This document shows, one piece after another, positions 1 through 8,039 of a stretch of 9,688 nucleotides of DNA; position 1 is the stretch's first letter; each line of letters starts with the position of its first letter. Both the position numbers and the translations under genes were made by a program. Origin of the DNA: a virus (lineage: Duplodnaviria > Heunggongvirae > Uroviricota > Caudoviricetes); IMG/VR virus record IMGVR_UViG_2541047758_000002, positions 1 to 9,688 of that record. The stretch is one strand, 5' to 3'. The notes beneath the pieces are model-generated. The model saw nothing but the letters and a program-made list of their open reading frames with translations. It did no database searches and was not told where the DNA came from.

Positions 1-117
1 GAAGAAACCCGGAAAGACGGTAAGAAAATTGATTATCCGGCGCGTCCTCTGCTCGGCTTTACCGGTGAGGATGTGCAGATGATTGAAGAGATTATTCTGG
101 CGCACCTCGACCGTTAG
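1..117 (+). CDS. S: 3' end of tail completion protein (P2 gpS-like); partial, 5' end lies outside the window
   Basis: Frame 1 is open from position 1 to TAG at 115..117 (translation ...GFTGEDVQMIEEIILAHLDR*). It sits directly upstream of the V homolog, as S does in P2. Identity rests mainly on synteny. Confidence 0.55.
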   Translation, partial: EETRKDGKKIDYPARPLLGFTGEDVQMIEEIILAHLDR

Positions 118-2076: not shown

Positions 2077-2680
2077 TTCGCGCCTGCTGCCGACCGGCTC
2101 ATCACCGCTTGAAGTTGCCGCCGCAAAAGCCTGTGCGGAAATTGAAAAAACGCCGGTCAGTATTCGTGAGCTGTGGAACCCGGACACCTGCCCGGCAAAT
2201 CTGCTGCCGTGGCTGGCGTGGTCATTTTCGGTCGACAGGTGGGATGATAAATGGCCGGAAGCGACCAAACGCGCTGTTATCCGCGATGCGTATTTCATTC
2301 ACTGCCATAAGGGCACTATTGGTGCGATTCGCCGTGTGGTGGAGCCGCTCGGCTATCTGATTGAGGTGAGGGAGTGGTGGCAGCTCAACGAGGAGCCGGG
2401 GACGTTCCGCATCGTTGTTGGCGTGCTTGAGCAGGGTATTACCGAGGAAATGTATCAGGAGCTGGAGCGTCTCGTTGCTGATGCAAAACCTGCAAGCCGC
2501 CATCTGACGGGACTGGCTATCAGTTTAAGTACAACCGGCAACATTTTTGCCGGTGCGGGATGCTATCACGGCGACGCCCTGACGGTTTATCCCTACACCC
2601 CGGAGGCCATTATTGTCGGAGGGGATTATTTCCCGGCCTCGGCCATTCATTTAATTGATAACCTGAGAGTAAACGCATGA
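2069..2680 (+). CDS. I: Baseplate/tail protein I (P2 gpI-like)
   Basis: 203-aa ORF whose ATG at 2069 overlaps the J stop (ATGAGTGA); synteny between J and the tail fibre gene. The start is uncertain because I recall P2 gpI as shorter, but no in-frame internal ATG lies near the expected position. Confidence 0.82.
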   Translation: MSDSRLLPTGSSPLEVAAAKACAEIEKTPVSIRELWNPDTCPANLLPWLAWSFSVDRWDDKWPEATKRAVIRDAYFIHCHKGTIGAIRRVVEPLGYLIEVREWWQLNEEPGTFRIVVGVLEQGITEEMYQELERLVADAKPASRHLTGLAISLSTTGNIFAGAGCYHGDALTVYPYTPEAIIVGGDYFPASAIHLIDNLRVNA

Positions 2681-3957
2681 CAGTGAAATACTACGCCATT
2701 CTGACTAATCAGGGCGCAGCACGGCTGGCTAACGCGACGATGCTCGGCAGTAAGCTGAATCTGACGCAAATGGCCGTTGGTGATGCGAATGGTGTCTTGC
2801 CGACACCAGACCCGGCACAGACAAAACTGATTAACCAGAAACGCATTGCACCGCTGAATCTTCTGAGTGTTGACCCGAATAACCAGAGCCAGATTATTGC
2901 GGAGCAAATCATCCCTGAGAACGAGGGCGGATTCTGGATCCGTGAGATTGGGCTTTATGATGATGAAGGCGTACTCATTGCGGTGGCGAACTGCCCGGAA
3001 ACGTACAAACCGCAGTTGCAGGAAGGCAGCGGTCGTACCCAGACTATCCGCATGATTCTGGTTGTCACGAATACCGAAGCTATCACGCTGAAAATCGACC
3101 CGTCGGTGGTACTGGCGACCCGTAAATACGTGGATGATGAAGTCCTGGAATTAAGGCTGTATGTGGATGACCAGATGAGAAACCATATTGCCGCACAGGA
3201 TCCTCATACCCAGTATGCACAGAAACATAATCCGACATTTACCGGAGAACCAAAAGCGCCGACGCCTGCTGCAGGAAATAACACCACGCGGATTGCGACC
3301 ACTGCGTTTGTTCAGGCGGTTATTACCGCTCTGATTAACGGTGCGCCTGCCACGCTGGATACACTGAAAGAAATTGCCGCAGCCATTAACAATGACCCGA
3401 AATTCAGCACCACCATTAACAATGCGCTGGCAGGTAAACAACCGCTGGACAATACGCTGACTAATTTGAGTGGAAAGGATGTAGCTGGTCTTCTCACATA
3501 CCTTGGAATAGGAGAAACGGGAAAATACGACATTCTGCCAGCATCAAGAGGAGGCACTGGAGCGTCAACTATAGCCGGAGCATTGATAAACTTTGGTCTG
3601 AGTGATTTAGTGACTGCCGGATTAGTACAGGTGGAATCTGGTACAGACTTTATTACTGCTAAGATTCCATTTCTGTCCGGTGGTAGAAAGCGATTCCTGA
3701 TGATACATGCCATCAAGGCGACAATGCCTGCAAATAATAACGGGTATAACCTTACTGTTACATTCCCAACTGCCTATGATAATGCACCGATACCAATTCT
3801 TGGCTCGACCGTAGGGTCGACTTCAACAACGGGTGGTACCACAGAGTCAATGAATATTTCATCAGTCACAAAATCGGGTTGCATCATTTCTTCAGCATGG
3901 CAAACATGGTCTGAGGGACCGGTATATCTTTTAACGATTGGAGGAGTTGCAGCATGA
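2677..3957 (+). CDS. H: Tail fibre protein (P2 gpH-like): constant N-terminal part to about 3503, variable C-terminal part 3505..3957 inside the invertible segment
   Basis: 426-aa ORF with start overlapping the I stop (ATGA). The N-terminus (MTVKYYAILTNQGAARLANA...) is the conserved fibre N-terminal domain shared by P2 H and Mu S-type fibres. The C-terminal third is AT-richer and begins at a hix/gix-like site. Confidence 0.9.
   Translation: MTVKYYAILTNQGAARLANATMLGSKLNLTQMAVGDANGVLPTPDPAQTKLINQKRIAPLNLLSVDPNNQSQIIAEQIIPENEGGFWIREIGLYDDEGVLIAVANCPETYKPQLQEGSGRTQTIRMILVVTNTEAITLKIDPSVVLATRKYVDDEVLELRLYVDDQMRNHIAAQDPHTQYAQKHNPTFTGEPKAPTPAAGNNTTRIATTAFVQAVITALINGAPATLDTLKEIAAAINNDPKFSTTINNALAGKQPLDNTLTNLSGKDVAGLLTYLGIGETGKYDILPASRGGTGASTIAGALINFGLSDLVTAGLVQVESGTDFITAKIPFLSGGRKRFLMIHAIKATMPANNNGYNLTVTFPTAYDNAPIPILGSTVGSTSTTGGTTESMNISSVTKSGCIISSAWQTWSEGPVYLLTIGGVAA
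3491..3516. repeat. Left crossover site of the invertible segment (hix/gix/cix-like 26-bp site), inside the H coding sequence
   Basis: TTCTCACATACC-TT-GGAATAGGAGAA. It matches the reverse complement of the right site (TTTTCTTAAACG-TT-GGTTTAGGAGAA) at 18 of 26 positions, 12 of 14 in the half that lies inside the segment. It has the 12-2-12 architecture of Hin-family recombination sites. Confidence 0.65.
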
Positions 3958-4340
3958 AATATTATTCACCTTCAATTAATGGATTTCCCGAACAAAAGAC
4001 TGATGACAGTATTGAGATCAGTGAAGAGGTCTGGAGAATACTTCTTAGTGAAATTTACTCAGGCCGGGAGTTATTTAACGATGGCGGCGTACCCGCTACC
4101 CGTGTGCCGCAACCTACGCAAGAACAAGTAATTGCAGCCGCAGAAAATGAGCGCCAACGATTGCTGAATTATGCTGATACCGTAATGCTCGACTGGCGTA
4201 CAGAATTGATGCTGGGTGAAATCAGCGACGCCAACAGGGCTAAATTGTCGGCGTGGCTGGCTTATAAAAATCAAGTTAAGTCGGTTGATGTGACAACTGA
4301 CCCTGAGCATGTTAACTGGCCTATTTCCCCGGAGGCGTAG
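3954..4340 (+). CDS. Tail fibre assembly chaperone (P2 gpG / Mu U / Tfa family) for the currently expressed fibre tip
   Basis: 128-aa ORF with start overlapping the H stop (ATGA). Sits immediately downstream of the fibre gene; the C-terminal region (...EHVNWPISPEA) resembles Tfa proteins. Confidence 0.8.
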   Translation: MKYYSPSINGFPEQKTDDSIEISEEVWRILLSEIYSGRELFNDGGVPATRVPQPTQEQVIAAAENERQRLLNYADTVMLDWRTELMLGEISDANRAKLSAWLAYKNQVKSVDVTTDPEHVNWPISPEA

Positions 4341-4752
4341 GCCATTCAATATCTGGCGCACCGGAAGTATCGACCAGTTCCAGTGCGTCCAGATAATCCA
4401 GCCACGAATTATATTGCGCCAGTTCCTCTCCTTTCAGACGACCAATCGCCGCTTTACCAGGCCATTGCTTACTGTTTATGTATTCGTTGACCTGATTAAT
4501 CAATTGCTGCTTTTCCAGTTCGGCTGCGGCAATTTGTTCCTCATGAGTTGGCGGTGGAATATCAATCCATGCTGGCATTCCGTCGATGACACCTCTGTAT
4601 TTTCCTTCTGGTGCTTCCTTCATAAATTCGGCGGCAACAGTGTCGTCAATTTCGATTCCATCATCGGGCCATTCGCCGGATTCCTGATAAGCGATTTTAA
4701 GCTCCACAGGGAAAAACGCATTTTTCTCGGCACTGAAAATATATTTCTGCAT
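4321..4752 (-). CDS. Alternative tail fibre assembly chaperone (Mu U'-like), partner of the silent fibre cassette
   Basis: 143-aa ORF on the - strand, starting 2 nt after the stop of the silent fibre cassette. The C-terminus (...DIEWPTPPGK) is Tfa-like. Its 3' end overlaps the + strand chaperone gene by 20 nt. Confidence 0.8.
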   Translation of the reverse strand: MQKYIFSAEKNAFFPVELKIAYQESGEWPDDGIEIDDTVAAEFMKEAPEGKYRGVIDGMPAWIDIPPPTHEEQIAAAELEKQQLINQVNEYINSKQWPGKAAIGRLKGEELAQYNSWLDYLDALELVDTSGAPDIEWPTPPGK

Positions 4753-4754
4753 TT

Positions 4755-5111
4755 CTACCGTCCTATCGAAATATAACTGAATCTGTATTGCTGTGAGATA
4801 TCACTGGTTGCCACACGCCACGCTGAATTACTGATATGTTCAAAATTTACAGACAAAACCTGCGGGGCAGGATTCGACGGGTCTGACTGAACGGCATCAG
4901 ACATAACACTGACTGAAACCATCGGCTGATTAGGGAATGGTATAGGGAAGTGTCCACTGATAAAGCGGGTCGTGTTTCCTGAAAAAGTGCCAAACTGAAC
5001 AATATATCCACCTGGTAGCCTGAACCATCCCGAACCAGAAGCGAATGCTCCCATATCAGGTATCTGATTATCTCCTGTGCCCACATCCCTTTTCGCCGCT
5101 TCTCCTAAACC
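4755..5111 (-). CDS. Silent alternative tail-fibre C-terminal cassette (Mu S'v-like); lacks its own start and would be expressed only after inversion fuses it to the constant part of H
   Basis: - strand reading frame open from the right crossover site to TAG at 4757..4755. Its first codons after the crossover core (GLGEAAK...) parallel the H codons after the left core (GIGETGK...). Frame arithmetic shows an in-frame fusion after inversion. Confidence 0.7.
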   Translation of the reverse strand, partial: GLGEAAKRDVGTGDNQIPDMGAFASGSGWFRLPGGYIVQFGTFSGNTTRFISGHFPIPFPNQPMVSVSVMSDAVQSDPSNPAPQVLSVNFEHISNSAWRVATSDISQQYRFSYISIGR

Positions 5112-5125
5112 AACGTTTAAGAAAA
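5100..5125. repeat. Right crossover site of the invertible segment (hix/gix/cix-like)
   Basis: TTCTCCTAAACC-AA-CGTTTAAGAAAA. Close to the Hin-family half-site consensus TTxTCxxAAACC with a 2-bp AA core, inverted relative to the left site (core TT on the + strand). Lies 55 bp upstream of the invertase start. Confidence 0.7.
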
Positions 5126-5180
5126 TGCAGAGGTAACAGCTAACTGGCATCATCCCCGGTTTTTATTCAGGGGGATAATC

Positions 5181-5774
5181 ATGCTTATTGGCTATGTACG
5201 CGTGTCAACAAATGACCAGAACACGGAATTGCAGCGTAACGCGCTGGAGTGTGCAGGATGTGAGCTGATTTTTGAGGATAAAATCAGCGGCACGAAGTCC
5301 GACAGGCCGGGACTGAAAAAACTGCTCAGAACATTATCAGCAGGTGACACTCTGGTGGTCTGGAAGCTGGACAGGCTGGGGCGTAGTATGCGGCATCTGG
5401 TCATTCTGGTTGAGGAACTGCGCGAACGCGGCGTTAATTTTCGCAGCCTGACGGATGCTATTGATACCAGCACGCCGATGGGGCGTTTTTTCTTTCATGT
5501 GATGGGTGCCCTGGCTGAAATGGAGCGAGAACTCATTGTCGAGCGGACACGCGCCGGACTGGAAGCGGCCAGAGCCAAAGGTCGTATTGGTGGCGGACGA
5601 CCGAAACTCACTGCGGGTGAGTGGGAGCAGGTCGGACGGTTGCTGGCTGCGGGGGAATCTCGTCAACGTGTGGCGCTGATTTTTGATATTGGTCTGTCCA
5701 CGCTCTATAAAAAATTCCCCTCATCAGCGACAAAGAATAAATTGTGTCATCCCTTAGCCAACCGGGACAAATAG
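5181..5774 (+). CDS. Site-specific serine DNA invertase (Hin/Gin/Cin/Pin family resolvase-invertase)
   Basis: 197-aa ORF; N-terminus MLIGYVRVSTNDQNTELQRNAL... carries the serine-recombinase catalytic motif (YVRVST) and the ...DRLGRS... region; C-terminal helix-turn-helix (...GLSTLYKKFP). Shine-Dalgarno GGGGGA lies 5 nt upstream. Adjacent to the invertible segment. Confidence 0.92.
   Translation: MLIGYVRVSTNDQNTELQRNALECAGCELIFEDKISGTKSDRPGLKKLLRTLSAGDTLVVWKLDRLGRSMRHLVILVEELRERGVNFRSLTDAIDTSTPMGRFFFHVMGALAEMERELIVERTRAGLEAARAKGRIGGGRPKLTAGEWEQVGRLLAAGESRQRVALIFDIGLSTLYKKFPSSATKNKLCHPLANRDK
5742..5763 (+). promoter_or_regulatory. Candidate late-promoter activator site upstream of FI, overlapping the 3' end of the invertase gene
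   Basis: TTGTGTCATCCCTTAGCCAACC about 90 nt upstream of the FI start; shares TTGTG-CAT-CC with the motif upstream of V. Confidence 0.3.
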
Positions 5775-5833: not shown

Positions 5834-7024
5834 ATGAGTGACTATCATCACGGCGTGCAGGTGCTGGAGATTAACGACGGCACCCGCGTCATTTCCACCG
5901 TATCCACTGCCATTGTTGGCATGGTCTGCACGGCCAGCGATGCGGATGCGGAAACCTTCCCCCTCAATAAACCGGTGCTGATTACCAATGTGCAGAGCGC
6001 AATTGCAAAGGCCGGTAAAAAAGGCACGCTGGCGGCATCGTTGCAGGCCATCGCCGACCAGTCAAAACCGGTCACCGTTGTCGTGCGTGTGGAAGACGGC
6101 ACCGGCGACGACGAGGAAACGAAACTCGCGCAGACCGTTTCCAATATCATCGGCACCACCGACGAAAACGGTCAGTACACCGGACTGAAAGCCCTGCTGG
6201 CGGCGGAGTCGGTAACCGGTGTTAAACCGCGTATTCTCGGCGTGCCGGGACTGGACACCAAAGAGGTGGCGGTTGCACTGGCATCAGTATGTCAGAAGCT
6301 GCGCGCTTTCGGGTATATCAGCGCATGGGGCTGTAAAACCATTTCCGAGGTGAAAGCCTACCGCCAGAATTTCAGCCAGCGTGAGCTGATGGTCATCTGG
6401 CCGGATTTCCTCGCATGGGATACGGTCACCAGTACCACCGCCACCGCGTATGCCACTGCCCGTGCACTGGGCCTGCGCGCTAAAATCGACCAGGAGCAGG
6501 GCTGGCATAAAACGCTGTCCAATGTCGGGGTGAACGGTGTTACCGGCATCAGCGCATCTGTATTCTGGGATTTGCAGGAGTCCGGCACCGATGCTGACCT
6601 GCTTAACGAGTCAGGCGTCACAACGCTGATTCGCCGTGACGGTTTCCGCTTCTGGGGTAACCGTACCTGTTCTGATGACCCGCTGTTCCTCTTTGAAAAC
6701 TACACCCGCACCGCGCAGGTGCTGGCCGATACGATGGCTGAGGCGCACATGTGGGCGGTGGACAAGCCCATCACCGCAACGCTGATTCGCGACATCGTTG
6801 ACGGCATCAATGCCAAATTCCGTGAGCTGAAAACAAACGGCTATATCGTGGATGCGACCTGCTGGTTCAGCGAAGAATCCAACGATGCGGAAACCCTTAA
6901 GGCCGGAAAACTGTATATCGACTACGACTATACCCCGGTGCCTCCTCTTGAAAACCTGACCCTGCGCCAGCGTATTACCGATAAATACCTGGCAAATCTG
7001 GTCACCTCGGTTAACAGCAATTAA
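5834..7024 (+). CDS. FI: Contractile tail sheath protein (P2 gpFI-like)
   Basis: 396-aa ORF, the same length as P2 FI; GGAG ribosome-binding site upstream; followed by the tube gene. Confidence 0.92.
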   Translation: MSDYHHGVQVLEINDGTRVISTVSTAIVGMVCTASDADAETFPLNKPVLITNVQSAIAKAGKKGTLAASLQAIADQSKPVTVVVRVEDGTGDDEETKLAQTVSNIIGTTDENGQYTGLKALLAAESVTGVKPRILGVPGLDTKEVAVALASVCQKLRAFGYISAWGCKTISEVKAYRQNFSQRELMVIWPDFLAWDTVTSTTATAYATARALGLRAKIDQEQGWHKTLSNVGVNGVTGISASVFWDLQESGTDADLLNESGVTTLIRRDGFRFWGNRTCSDDPLFLFENYTRTAQVLADTMAEAHMWAVDKPITATLIRDIVDGINAKFRELKTNGYIVDATCWFSEESNDAETLKAGKLYIDYDYTPVPPLENLTLRQRITDKYLANLVTSVNSN

Positions 7025-7611: not shown

Positions 7612-7887
7612 ATGAACAAAGAAAATGTCATTACCCTGGACAATCCGGTCAAACGTGGTGAGCAGGTTATCGAACAGGTCACGCTGATGAAACCCAATGC
7701 CGGGACGCTGCGCGGTGTCAGTCTGGCTGCGGTTGCAAACTCCGAAGTCGATGCACTGATTAAGGTGCTGCCGCGCATGACGGCACCGATGCTGACCGAG
7801 CAGGAAGTCGCCGCGCTGGAACTGCCTGACCTTGTGGCGCTGGCCGGTAAGGTGGTCGGTTTTTTGTCGCCGAACTCGGTGCAGTGA
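7612..7887 (+). CDS. E: Tail assembly chaperone E (P2 gpE-like), zero-frame product
   Basis: 91-aa ORF, the same length as P2 gpE, between the tube and tape measure genes; contains the TTTTTTG slippery site near its 3' end. Confidence 0.88.
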   Translation: MNKENVITLDNPVKRGEQVIEQVTLMKPNAGTLRGVSLAAVANSEVDALIKVLPRMTAPMLTEQEVAALELPDLVALAGKVVGFLSPNSVQ

Positions 7888-8039
7888 CGTTTCCAAAAAA
7901 TCTCTCGGTCGATGACCTGATGGCGGATGTGGCAGTGATATTTCACTGGCCGCCATCAGAACTGTATCCCATGAGCCTGACCGAACTCAACACATGGCGC
8001 GAAAAGGCGCTCCGGCGAAGCGGAAACACGAATGAGTAA
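7612..8039 (+). CDS. E: Tail assembly chaperone E+E' made by programmed -1 ribosomal frameshift at 7860..7866
   Basis: The -1 frame downstream of the slippery heptamer is open to TAA at 8037..8039 (...VTFPKNLSVDDLMADVAVIFHWPPSELYPMSLTELNTWREKALRRSGNTNE*). The fusion would be about 142 aa, matching P2 gpE+E'. Confidence 0.75.
7860..7866 (+). promoter_or_regulatory. Slippery heptamer T-TTT-TTG for the -1 frameshift producing E+E'
   Basis: Sequence ttttttg read directly; same heptamer class as used by P2 E/E' and lambda G/GT. Confidence 0.7.

Follow-up and report, generated by a model that had tools for sequence, protein, structure and literature searches.

The locus described here is very likely a two-state invertible fibre switch of the Gin/Pin type in a P2-like prophage of E. 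coli, working in the manner of the G segment of Mu and the P segment of e14. The cassette lying silent on its minus strand is an intact, constrained alternative C-terminus of the tail fibre. Profile comparisons make it likely that the silent tip and the tip now joined to the fibre, although very divergent, belong to a single domain family and have a common fold.

Organisation of the locus

The window, by which we mean the whole stretch of DNA analysed (9,688 nt), is 100% identical to part of scaffold KE699873.1 of assembly GCA_000457655.1. Its open reading frames, its Pfam matches and a comparison with related contigs show that it carries the late tail operon of a P2-like prophage. The late operon is of the P2 type and is apparently complete, running from L (head-completion), X, the lysis genes, R, S, V, W, J, I and H to the sheath, tube and tape-measure genes. 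The features discussed in the text are as follows.

184-819: V, tail operon gene
816-1163: W, tail operon gene
1168-2076: J, tail operon gene
2069-2680: I, tail operon gene
2677-3957, plus strand: fibre gene H, an ORF of 426 aa
2677-3503, plus strand: constant part of H, residues 1 to ~276, including an N-terminal tail-collar fibre domain
3491-3516: left crossover site, 26 bp, inside H (codons L-L-T-Y-L-G-I-G-E), with its central TT at 3503-3504
3505-3957, plus strand: expressed variable tip, 150 aa and stop, a fibre-repeat linker and then a C-terminal globular domain of ~110 aa
3954-4340, plus strand: tail fibre assembly chaperone of the expressed tip, 128 aa, matching Caudo_TAP PF02413 (E=1.1e-19) and phrog_188 (E=1.8e-32)
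4321-4752, minus strand: silent chaperone, cognate to the silent tip, 143 aa, matching Caudo_TAP (E=9.8e-35)
4755-5111, minus strand: silent alternative fibre tip, 118 aa and stop, Gp53-like_C (Pfam PF21882)
5100-5125: right crossover site, 26 bp, inverted relative to the left one, with its central AA at 5112-5113 (TT on the other strand)
5112-5153, minus strand: 14-codon leader (MMPVSCYLCIFLNV), added to the silent tip by ORF callers
5181-5774, plus strand: serine DNA invertase of the Gin/Pin/Cin/Hin group, 197 aa, matching Pfam Resolvase and HTH_7

Residues 1-150 of H match the Pfam domain Phage_tail_fib (PF12571, E=2.4e-62), and the constant part is 97.6% identical in E. coli IAL7250 (L001), up to position 3516. 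The tips are short in comparison with the H protein of P2, as had been suggested earlier: H has 669 aa in P2 itself and 426 aa here. The slot between G and FI, which in P2 is occupied by fun(Z), here contains the second half-cassette and the invertase.

Downstream of the invertase come the sheath, tube, E/E' and tape-measure genes. The ORFs at 7612-7887 and 7884-8039 match the E/E' arrangement of P2, where a programmed -1 frameshift is annotated (NC_001895). At the opposite end of the window, gene S is split in the gene calls by a 95-bp duplication: the source scaffold has window positions 1-95 twice, on either side of a stretch of 10 N (L008, positions 1718-1812 and 1823-1917). We considered and rejected a genuinely defective S, as the duplication flanks the 10 N and is an assembly or scaffolding artefact, and S is intact in L007.

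The invertible segment

The two crossover sites lie within a 35-nt inverted repeat (3491-3525 and 5091-5125). Their 26-bp cores are TTCTCACATACC-TT-GGAATAGGAGAA and TTTTCTTAAACG-TT-GGTTTAGGAGAA, which are identical at 19 of the 26 positions and have the central TT in common, read in the same sense. A scan of the window with the two-site consensus returned exactly these two sites, even with three mismatches allowed, and two matches were obtained in none of 200 shuffled controls. A three-state switch with a third crossover site, as found in EPEC, was rejected on these grounds. The invertible segment is ~1.6 kb long (3503-5113) and consists of two convergent half-cassettes, each made up of a tip and a chaperone; exchange between the two central dinucleotides would invert about 1610 bp (3504-5112).

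When the segment is flipped in silico, the constant part of H is joined in frame to the silent tip, producing an uninterrupted ORF of 394 aa that reads ...AGLLTYLGLGEAAKRDVG... In natural genomes each tip is seen in either position. A 255-bp probe across the predicted junction of the flipped state, where the constant part of H meets the silent tip, is at least 80% covered in 51 complete E. coli genomes, with an identity of ~94-99%, and the annotation in these genomes is always 'phage tail protein'. In E. coli FG92-1 (L005) the half-cassette 4329-5125 forms the expressed end of H, in inverted form and with an identity of 98.5%, and the inverted match stops at 5125, which is the outer edge of the right site. 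The expressed tip, for its part, is found in the silent position in another P2-like prophage (L018), which has a different gp53-like tip on H and represents the flipped state of the arrangement in L004. The protein encoded on this contig, P0007 (28 member sequences), is the expressed tip behind the invertase-proximal leader. The source contig shows a single orientation, and activity of the switch in the source strain is something that we infer.

The invertase is a full-length protein with a strong match to Pfam Resolvase (E=2.9e-52) in addition to HTH_7. Residues 1-182 match the structure of Mu Gin (3UJ3, E=1.5e-92), the catalytic N-terminal serine region is conserved with respect to Gin, and the protein is 86% identical to PinE of K-12 (e14). 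In the Gin, Hin, Cin and Pin systems, the invertase acts together with enhancer-bound Fis to invert the segment at low frequency. A degenerate Fis motif was scanned over 5126-5500, a stretch that takes in the start of the invertase gene; candidates were numerous, and none of them formed a convincing pair. Between the right site and the start of the invertase gene, on the plus strand, there is a terminator-like hairpin followed by a run of T (5142-5161), which might insulate the invertase from read-through of the late operon.

The silent cassette

The minus-strand ORF extends over 4755-5153. The part to be fused to the fibre is 4758-5111, with the stop codon at 4755-4757, and it encodes 118 aa reading GLGEAAKRDVGTGDNQIPDM...YISIGR. 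The coordinates 4755-5111 and the approximate lengths assigned to the two tips in the initial annotation are thus right, the expressed tip having 150 aa encoded by 3505-3954. The leader MMPVSCYLCIFLNV does not belong to the invertible segment, stands in front of different tips in other genomes (P0007 and L018) and probably holds no real start codon. No sigma-70-like promoter was found upstream of the minus-strand ORF. Given that there is no promoter, and that the leader is outside the segment and common to other tips, the cassette is silent until flipped. It had originally been read as a silent, alternative fibre tip, and this reading holds: the cassette is promoterless, it lies inside an invertase-driven switch, it flips in frame, and it comes with its own chaperone.

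The silent tip is a common type that is already annotated. It is 100% identical to proteins in the databases and has 395 homologues; the RefSeq name of the ORF is 'gp53-like domain-containing protein'. Of 5426 complete E. coli genomes, 312 contain its DNA, and 19 phage records encode the tip with a protein identity of at least 95%. In other genomes it is the expressed end of full-length fibres.

The possibility of inactivating lesions in the silent cassette, raised at the outset, was examined in an alignment of 24 sequences at 75-99% identity. No lesions were found in the present copy, and the only defective members of the alignment are two database fragments. Neither the silent tip nor its chaperone contains stops or frameshifts. 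In comparison with the 84%-identical copy in E. coli USMARC-49610 (L002), the tip has a dN/dS of 0.25, and the sole change in length is an in-frame indel of two codons.

These results bear on the proposal that the silent cassette is a frozen remnant, with a switch that no longer operates here and a minus-strand ORF that is decaying or irrelevant. We regard this as very improbable. It is true that one orientation was seen in all five of the contigs examined that encode the exact H protein (nine were found), and the scan of 5126-5500 yielded no convincing pair of Fis enhancer sites. Against this, the invertase and both crossover sites are intact, the core dinucleotides of the two sites match, the reading frames of the silent tip and its chaperone are uninterrupted and the tip has the low dN/dS given above, and near-identical half-cassettes are found in both orientations.

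Relationship between the two tips

The initial annotation described the silent tip as unrelated in sequence to the expressed one, with only a few junction residues in common. In a pairwise comparison this is correct: BLASTP of one tip against the other gives E=0.25, and the sole collinear match is the junction itself (GIGE/GLGE). The tips have G-[I/L]-G-E in common because the recombination site itself encodes these residues. As a statement about families it probably does not stand, since Pfam, phrog_1396, BLASTP against StfP and hhalign all link the expressed tip to the domain family of the silent one.

The silent tip is a member of the family Gp53-like_C. It matches PF21882 with 38.1 bits, where the cut-off is 24.9, over profile positions 1-84 of 84. 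The expressed tip matches the same profile with 19.5 bits (E=1.4e-3), over positions 14-83 of 84, and PF21882 is matched by five of the ten members of the expressed-tip family. No Pfam match other than PF21882 was found for either tip, and no NCBIfam models were found for either tip or either chaperone. A second profile, phrog_1396, matches both tips, the silent one with E=6.7e-22 over positions 230-340 and the expressed one with E=2.1e-3 over positions 272-325. In addition, BLASTP finds 27% identity over 86 aa (E=2e-5) between the expressed tip and the C-terminal tip of StfP from K-12, and StfP itself matches PF21882 with 58.7 bits.

Profile-profile comparison depends on the breadth of the alignments used. 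Direct hhalign of the two tip clades gives a probability of 4-7%, and our first run, on narrow alignments, gave 7%; the method became informative once diverse gp53-like tips were added. The reference for this purpose was a diverse set of eight gp53-like tips, taken from other phages and prophages and excluding the silent-tip clade. Against it, the expressed-tip family obtains a probability of 79% (E=1.6e-5, score 34.4) and the silent clade 97.5% (E=6.6e-12), whereas reversed and column-shuffled controls score 6.6-14.4, with probabilities of at most 0.6%. The remote-homology search that had been recommended for both tips therefore points to one domain family (PF21882, phrog_1396, and hhalign at 79% and 97.5%) and away from unrelated modules.

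Structure prediction was also recommended earlier, and here the outcome is neutral. AlphaFold2 monomer models of the tips have pLDDT values of 41.6 and 42.2, and are all-beta with seven strands each; the input alignments contained 12 and 24 sequences, nearly all of them close relatives. Foldseek searches of the PDB with these low-pLDDT models returned noise (E of 0.26 or higher), so that the models speak neither for nor against a common fold.

The opposing view is that the tips arose independently, as receptor-binding modules with no structural relationship to each other. The pairwise E value of 0.25, the 4-7% probability in the narrow profile-profile comparison, the position of the expressed tip under the Pfam cut-off and the unusable tip models (pLDDT ~42) would all agree with it. 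It has to be set against the near full-length coverage of PF21882 by the expressed tip at E=1.4e-3, the phrog_1396 match over the same region of the profile as the silent tip, the match to the gp53-like tip of StfP at E=2e-5, and the 79% hhalign probability with clean reversed and shuffled controls. On balance we consider an independent origin unlikely. The expressed tip is probably a distant gp53-like relative that falls below the threshold and so is not filed as a Pfam member, a placement that comes from sequence profiles.

Searches of the PDB suggest what the common fold may be. Single-sequence searches of the PDB with either tip gave nothing significant. With profiles, the best match of the expressed family is the fibre foot of the R1 pyocin (6CXB, E=0.017), and the silent family has weak matches to the R2 pyocin fibre and to AP22 gp53 (E ~0.7). 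Both tips probably share the lectin-like "foot" fold of the R-pyocins and of AP22 gp53, as far as these matches indicate. The R-pyocin foot domains have in common an eight-stranded, lectin-type jellyroll with variable distal loops, and these loops are the proposed carriers of LPS specificity, so that one foot fold can bear different LPS specificities (Salazar et al., PMC6363177).

Chaperones and exchange of half-cassettes

Identity between the two chaperones is 32%, and the silent one is 52% identical to TfaP of K-12. Their genes are convergent and overlap tail-to-tail by 20 bp (4321-4340). Each chaperone moves with its own tip in other genomes; the chaperone of the expressed tip, for example, accompanies that tip at 99% identity or above in L002, L003 and L004.

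Several genomes record the exchange of these units. The window matches L001 up to position 3516 and again from 4329, which means that the expressed tip and its chaperone have been replaced there as a unit. These mosaic breakpoints coincide with the outer edge of the left crossover site and with the place where the chaperone genes overlap tail-to-tail. L003 and L004 have an expressed tip and chaperone at least 98.9% identical to those in the window, while their constant part of H and their invertase are only 75-79% identical. An e14-like element of USMARC-49610 (L002), which carries pinE, has the whole segment at 93% identity. The expressed tip is found on three kinds of fibre scaffold, namely a P2-type H, an e14-type StfP-like protein of 247 aa and a fibre of 604 aa. 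Half-cassettes of tip and chaperone thus move horizontally between unrelated fibre scaffolds, as is already well established for fibre genes.

Two contigs that carry this H protein, L009 (2161-4358, SRR784021) and L010 (2192-4358, SRR958205), both end at 4358, just past the chaperone junction. This suggests that in these genomes the silent half-cassette is repeated elsewhere, or that it is heterogeneous.

Comparison with known switches

Switching of fibre tips by an invertase has been textbook knowledge since Mu, P1 and e14. The closest system is the P segment of e14 (stfP/tfaP, stfE/tfaE and pinE), which has the same layout as the present locus: constant fibre part, site, tip and chaperone, inverted chaperone and tip, second site, and invertase. 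The crossover cores are nearly the same, being TTGGTTTGGGAGAAGG in e14 and TTGGTTTAGGAGAAGC here. The constant parts differ: the one described here is of the P2 H type, bears the PF12571 baseplate-attachment domain and belongs to a P2-like prophage that is apparently complete, whereas that of e14 is short and belongs to a defective lambdoid element. The tips differ also, in that both are gp53-like here while the stfE tip of e14 is of the collar type. Collar-type tips, as typed by reading the sequences, are also present in L001 (expressed) and L005 (silent), alongside K-12 StfE, unlike the two tips here, for which PF21882 was the one Pfam match.

The G segment of Mu (S/U, S'/U' and Gin) and the C segment of P1 (Cin) operate by the same mechanism as the locus described here. 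Each has one constant 5' part of the fibre gene and two variable 3' parts, each variable part has its own assembly chaperone, and the switch changes the host range. The segment here is smaller, at ~1.6 kb compared with 3 kb for G and 4.2 kb for C (sizes quoted in PMC12529663), and its tips are gp53-like domains of ~120-150 aa, unlike those of Mu G and P1 C.

The P2-like prophages of EPEC E2348/69 likewise combine an invertase with inverted repeats to generate alternative fibre C-termini, and the fibre variants have been shown experimentally to coexist in culture (PMC4272514). Inversion has been demonstrated for e14 as well as for the EPEC P2-like prophages (PMC4272514). One of the EPEC loci has three repeats and three alternative termini, in contrast to the two sites found here.

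The tips themselves are best compared with the R-pyocin foot and AP22 gp53 (6CXB/6CL5, 6CT8 and 4MTM; PF21882). Like the tips here, these domains of ~100 aa form the C-terminus of a fibre and depend on a chaperone encoded downstream, although the sequence matches to the present tips are marginal. In the R-pyocins, soluble expression of the fibre requires the downstream chaperone (PMC6363177). Pyocin fibres do not switch by inversion, which sets them apart from the locus described here.

The locus is therefore of an already known kind, with its sequences present in the databases, and it adds no new biological phenomenon.

Proposed mechanism and function

We propose that the locus would function as follows. 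The constant 5' part of H ends in the 26-bp crossover site, and the neighbouring serine invertase would recombine the two inverted sites. The resulting flip would exchange the expressed tip and its chaperone (3505-4340) for the silent pair (4755-5111 and 4321-4752), to give the in-frame fibre of 394 aa. The two tips would probably bind different surface receptors by means of different distal loops, and by analogy with the R-pyocins these receptors would probably be LPS or other surface glycans. A population of lysogens could in this way release virions with either tip, and hence with two host ranges.

That the two tips recognise different receptors is something we infer from the analogy with related fibres, and a shared fold leaves room for it. 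The locus had been called a compact host-range determinant, and this is a reasonable reading, given an intact alternative tip that has its own chaperone, shows a dN/dS of 0.25 and is expressed in other genomes.

A different main role has been considered, namely host defence, in which the flipped fibre would mask a receptor and block other phages. In e14, inversion of the P segment is reported to create a gp53-like chimera, StfE2, that blocks the adsorption of T2 (PMC12529663), and the invertase, the silent chaperone and the expressed tip of the present locus all have relatives in e14; moreover, the whole segment is found at 93% identity in an e14-like element. The setting speaks against it. 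The cassette is located in an apparently complete P2-type late operon, the fibre is of full length and has its baseplate-attachment domain, and late genes are not expressed in a repressed lysogen. Defence as the main selected role thus seems most improbable, and a host-range switch remains our preferred reading, beside which defence is possible as an added role. By analogy with StfE2, the switch might act beyond the host range of the virion, with one orientation supplying a receptor-occupying gp53-like fibre that blocks unrelated phages, but we would give this little credence. If it were true, the rare expressed tip might be kept for defence, or might use a receptor that is used by no characterised coliphage fibre.

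Characterisation of the pair would extend the catalogue of small gp53-like fibre tips by two receptor specificities. Such tips are convenient modules, paired with a chaperone, for the retargeting of phages and tailocins.

The expressed tip

The unusual tip of the pair is the expressed one, which is rare. It occurs in three of the 5426 E. coli genomes, it is absent from 50,697 phage records, and a search of 5.8 billion proteins located 15 proteins. When 1.84 billion representatives were searched exhaustively, only about six proteins matched over the globular domain, with identities of 30-39%; most of the matches in this search cover just the repeat motif of the linker. As a rare gp53-like relative below the family threshold it is only mildly new. 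It is nevertheless the more useful lead of the two tips, because it has almost no relatives and lies below the family thresholds.

Two minor observations concern the N-terminal region of this tip. A 17-nt inverted repeat (TCAAGAGGAGGCACTGG), 94% complementary, connects positions 3544-3560 in the expressed tip with 6935-6951 at the 3' end of the sheath gene, and is probably due to chance. The linker (3529-3600, residues ~9-32) bears a fibre-repeat motif (ILPASRGGTGASTIAGA...NFGL), and the relative P0006 has an extra copy of it (VPVSKGGSGATNVAGA), showing that the copy number varies.
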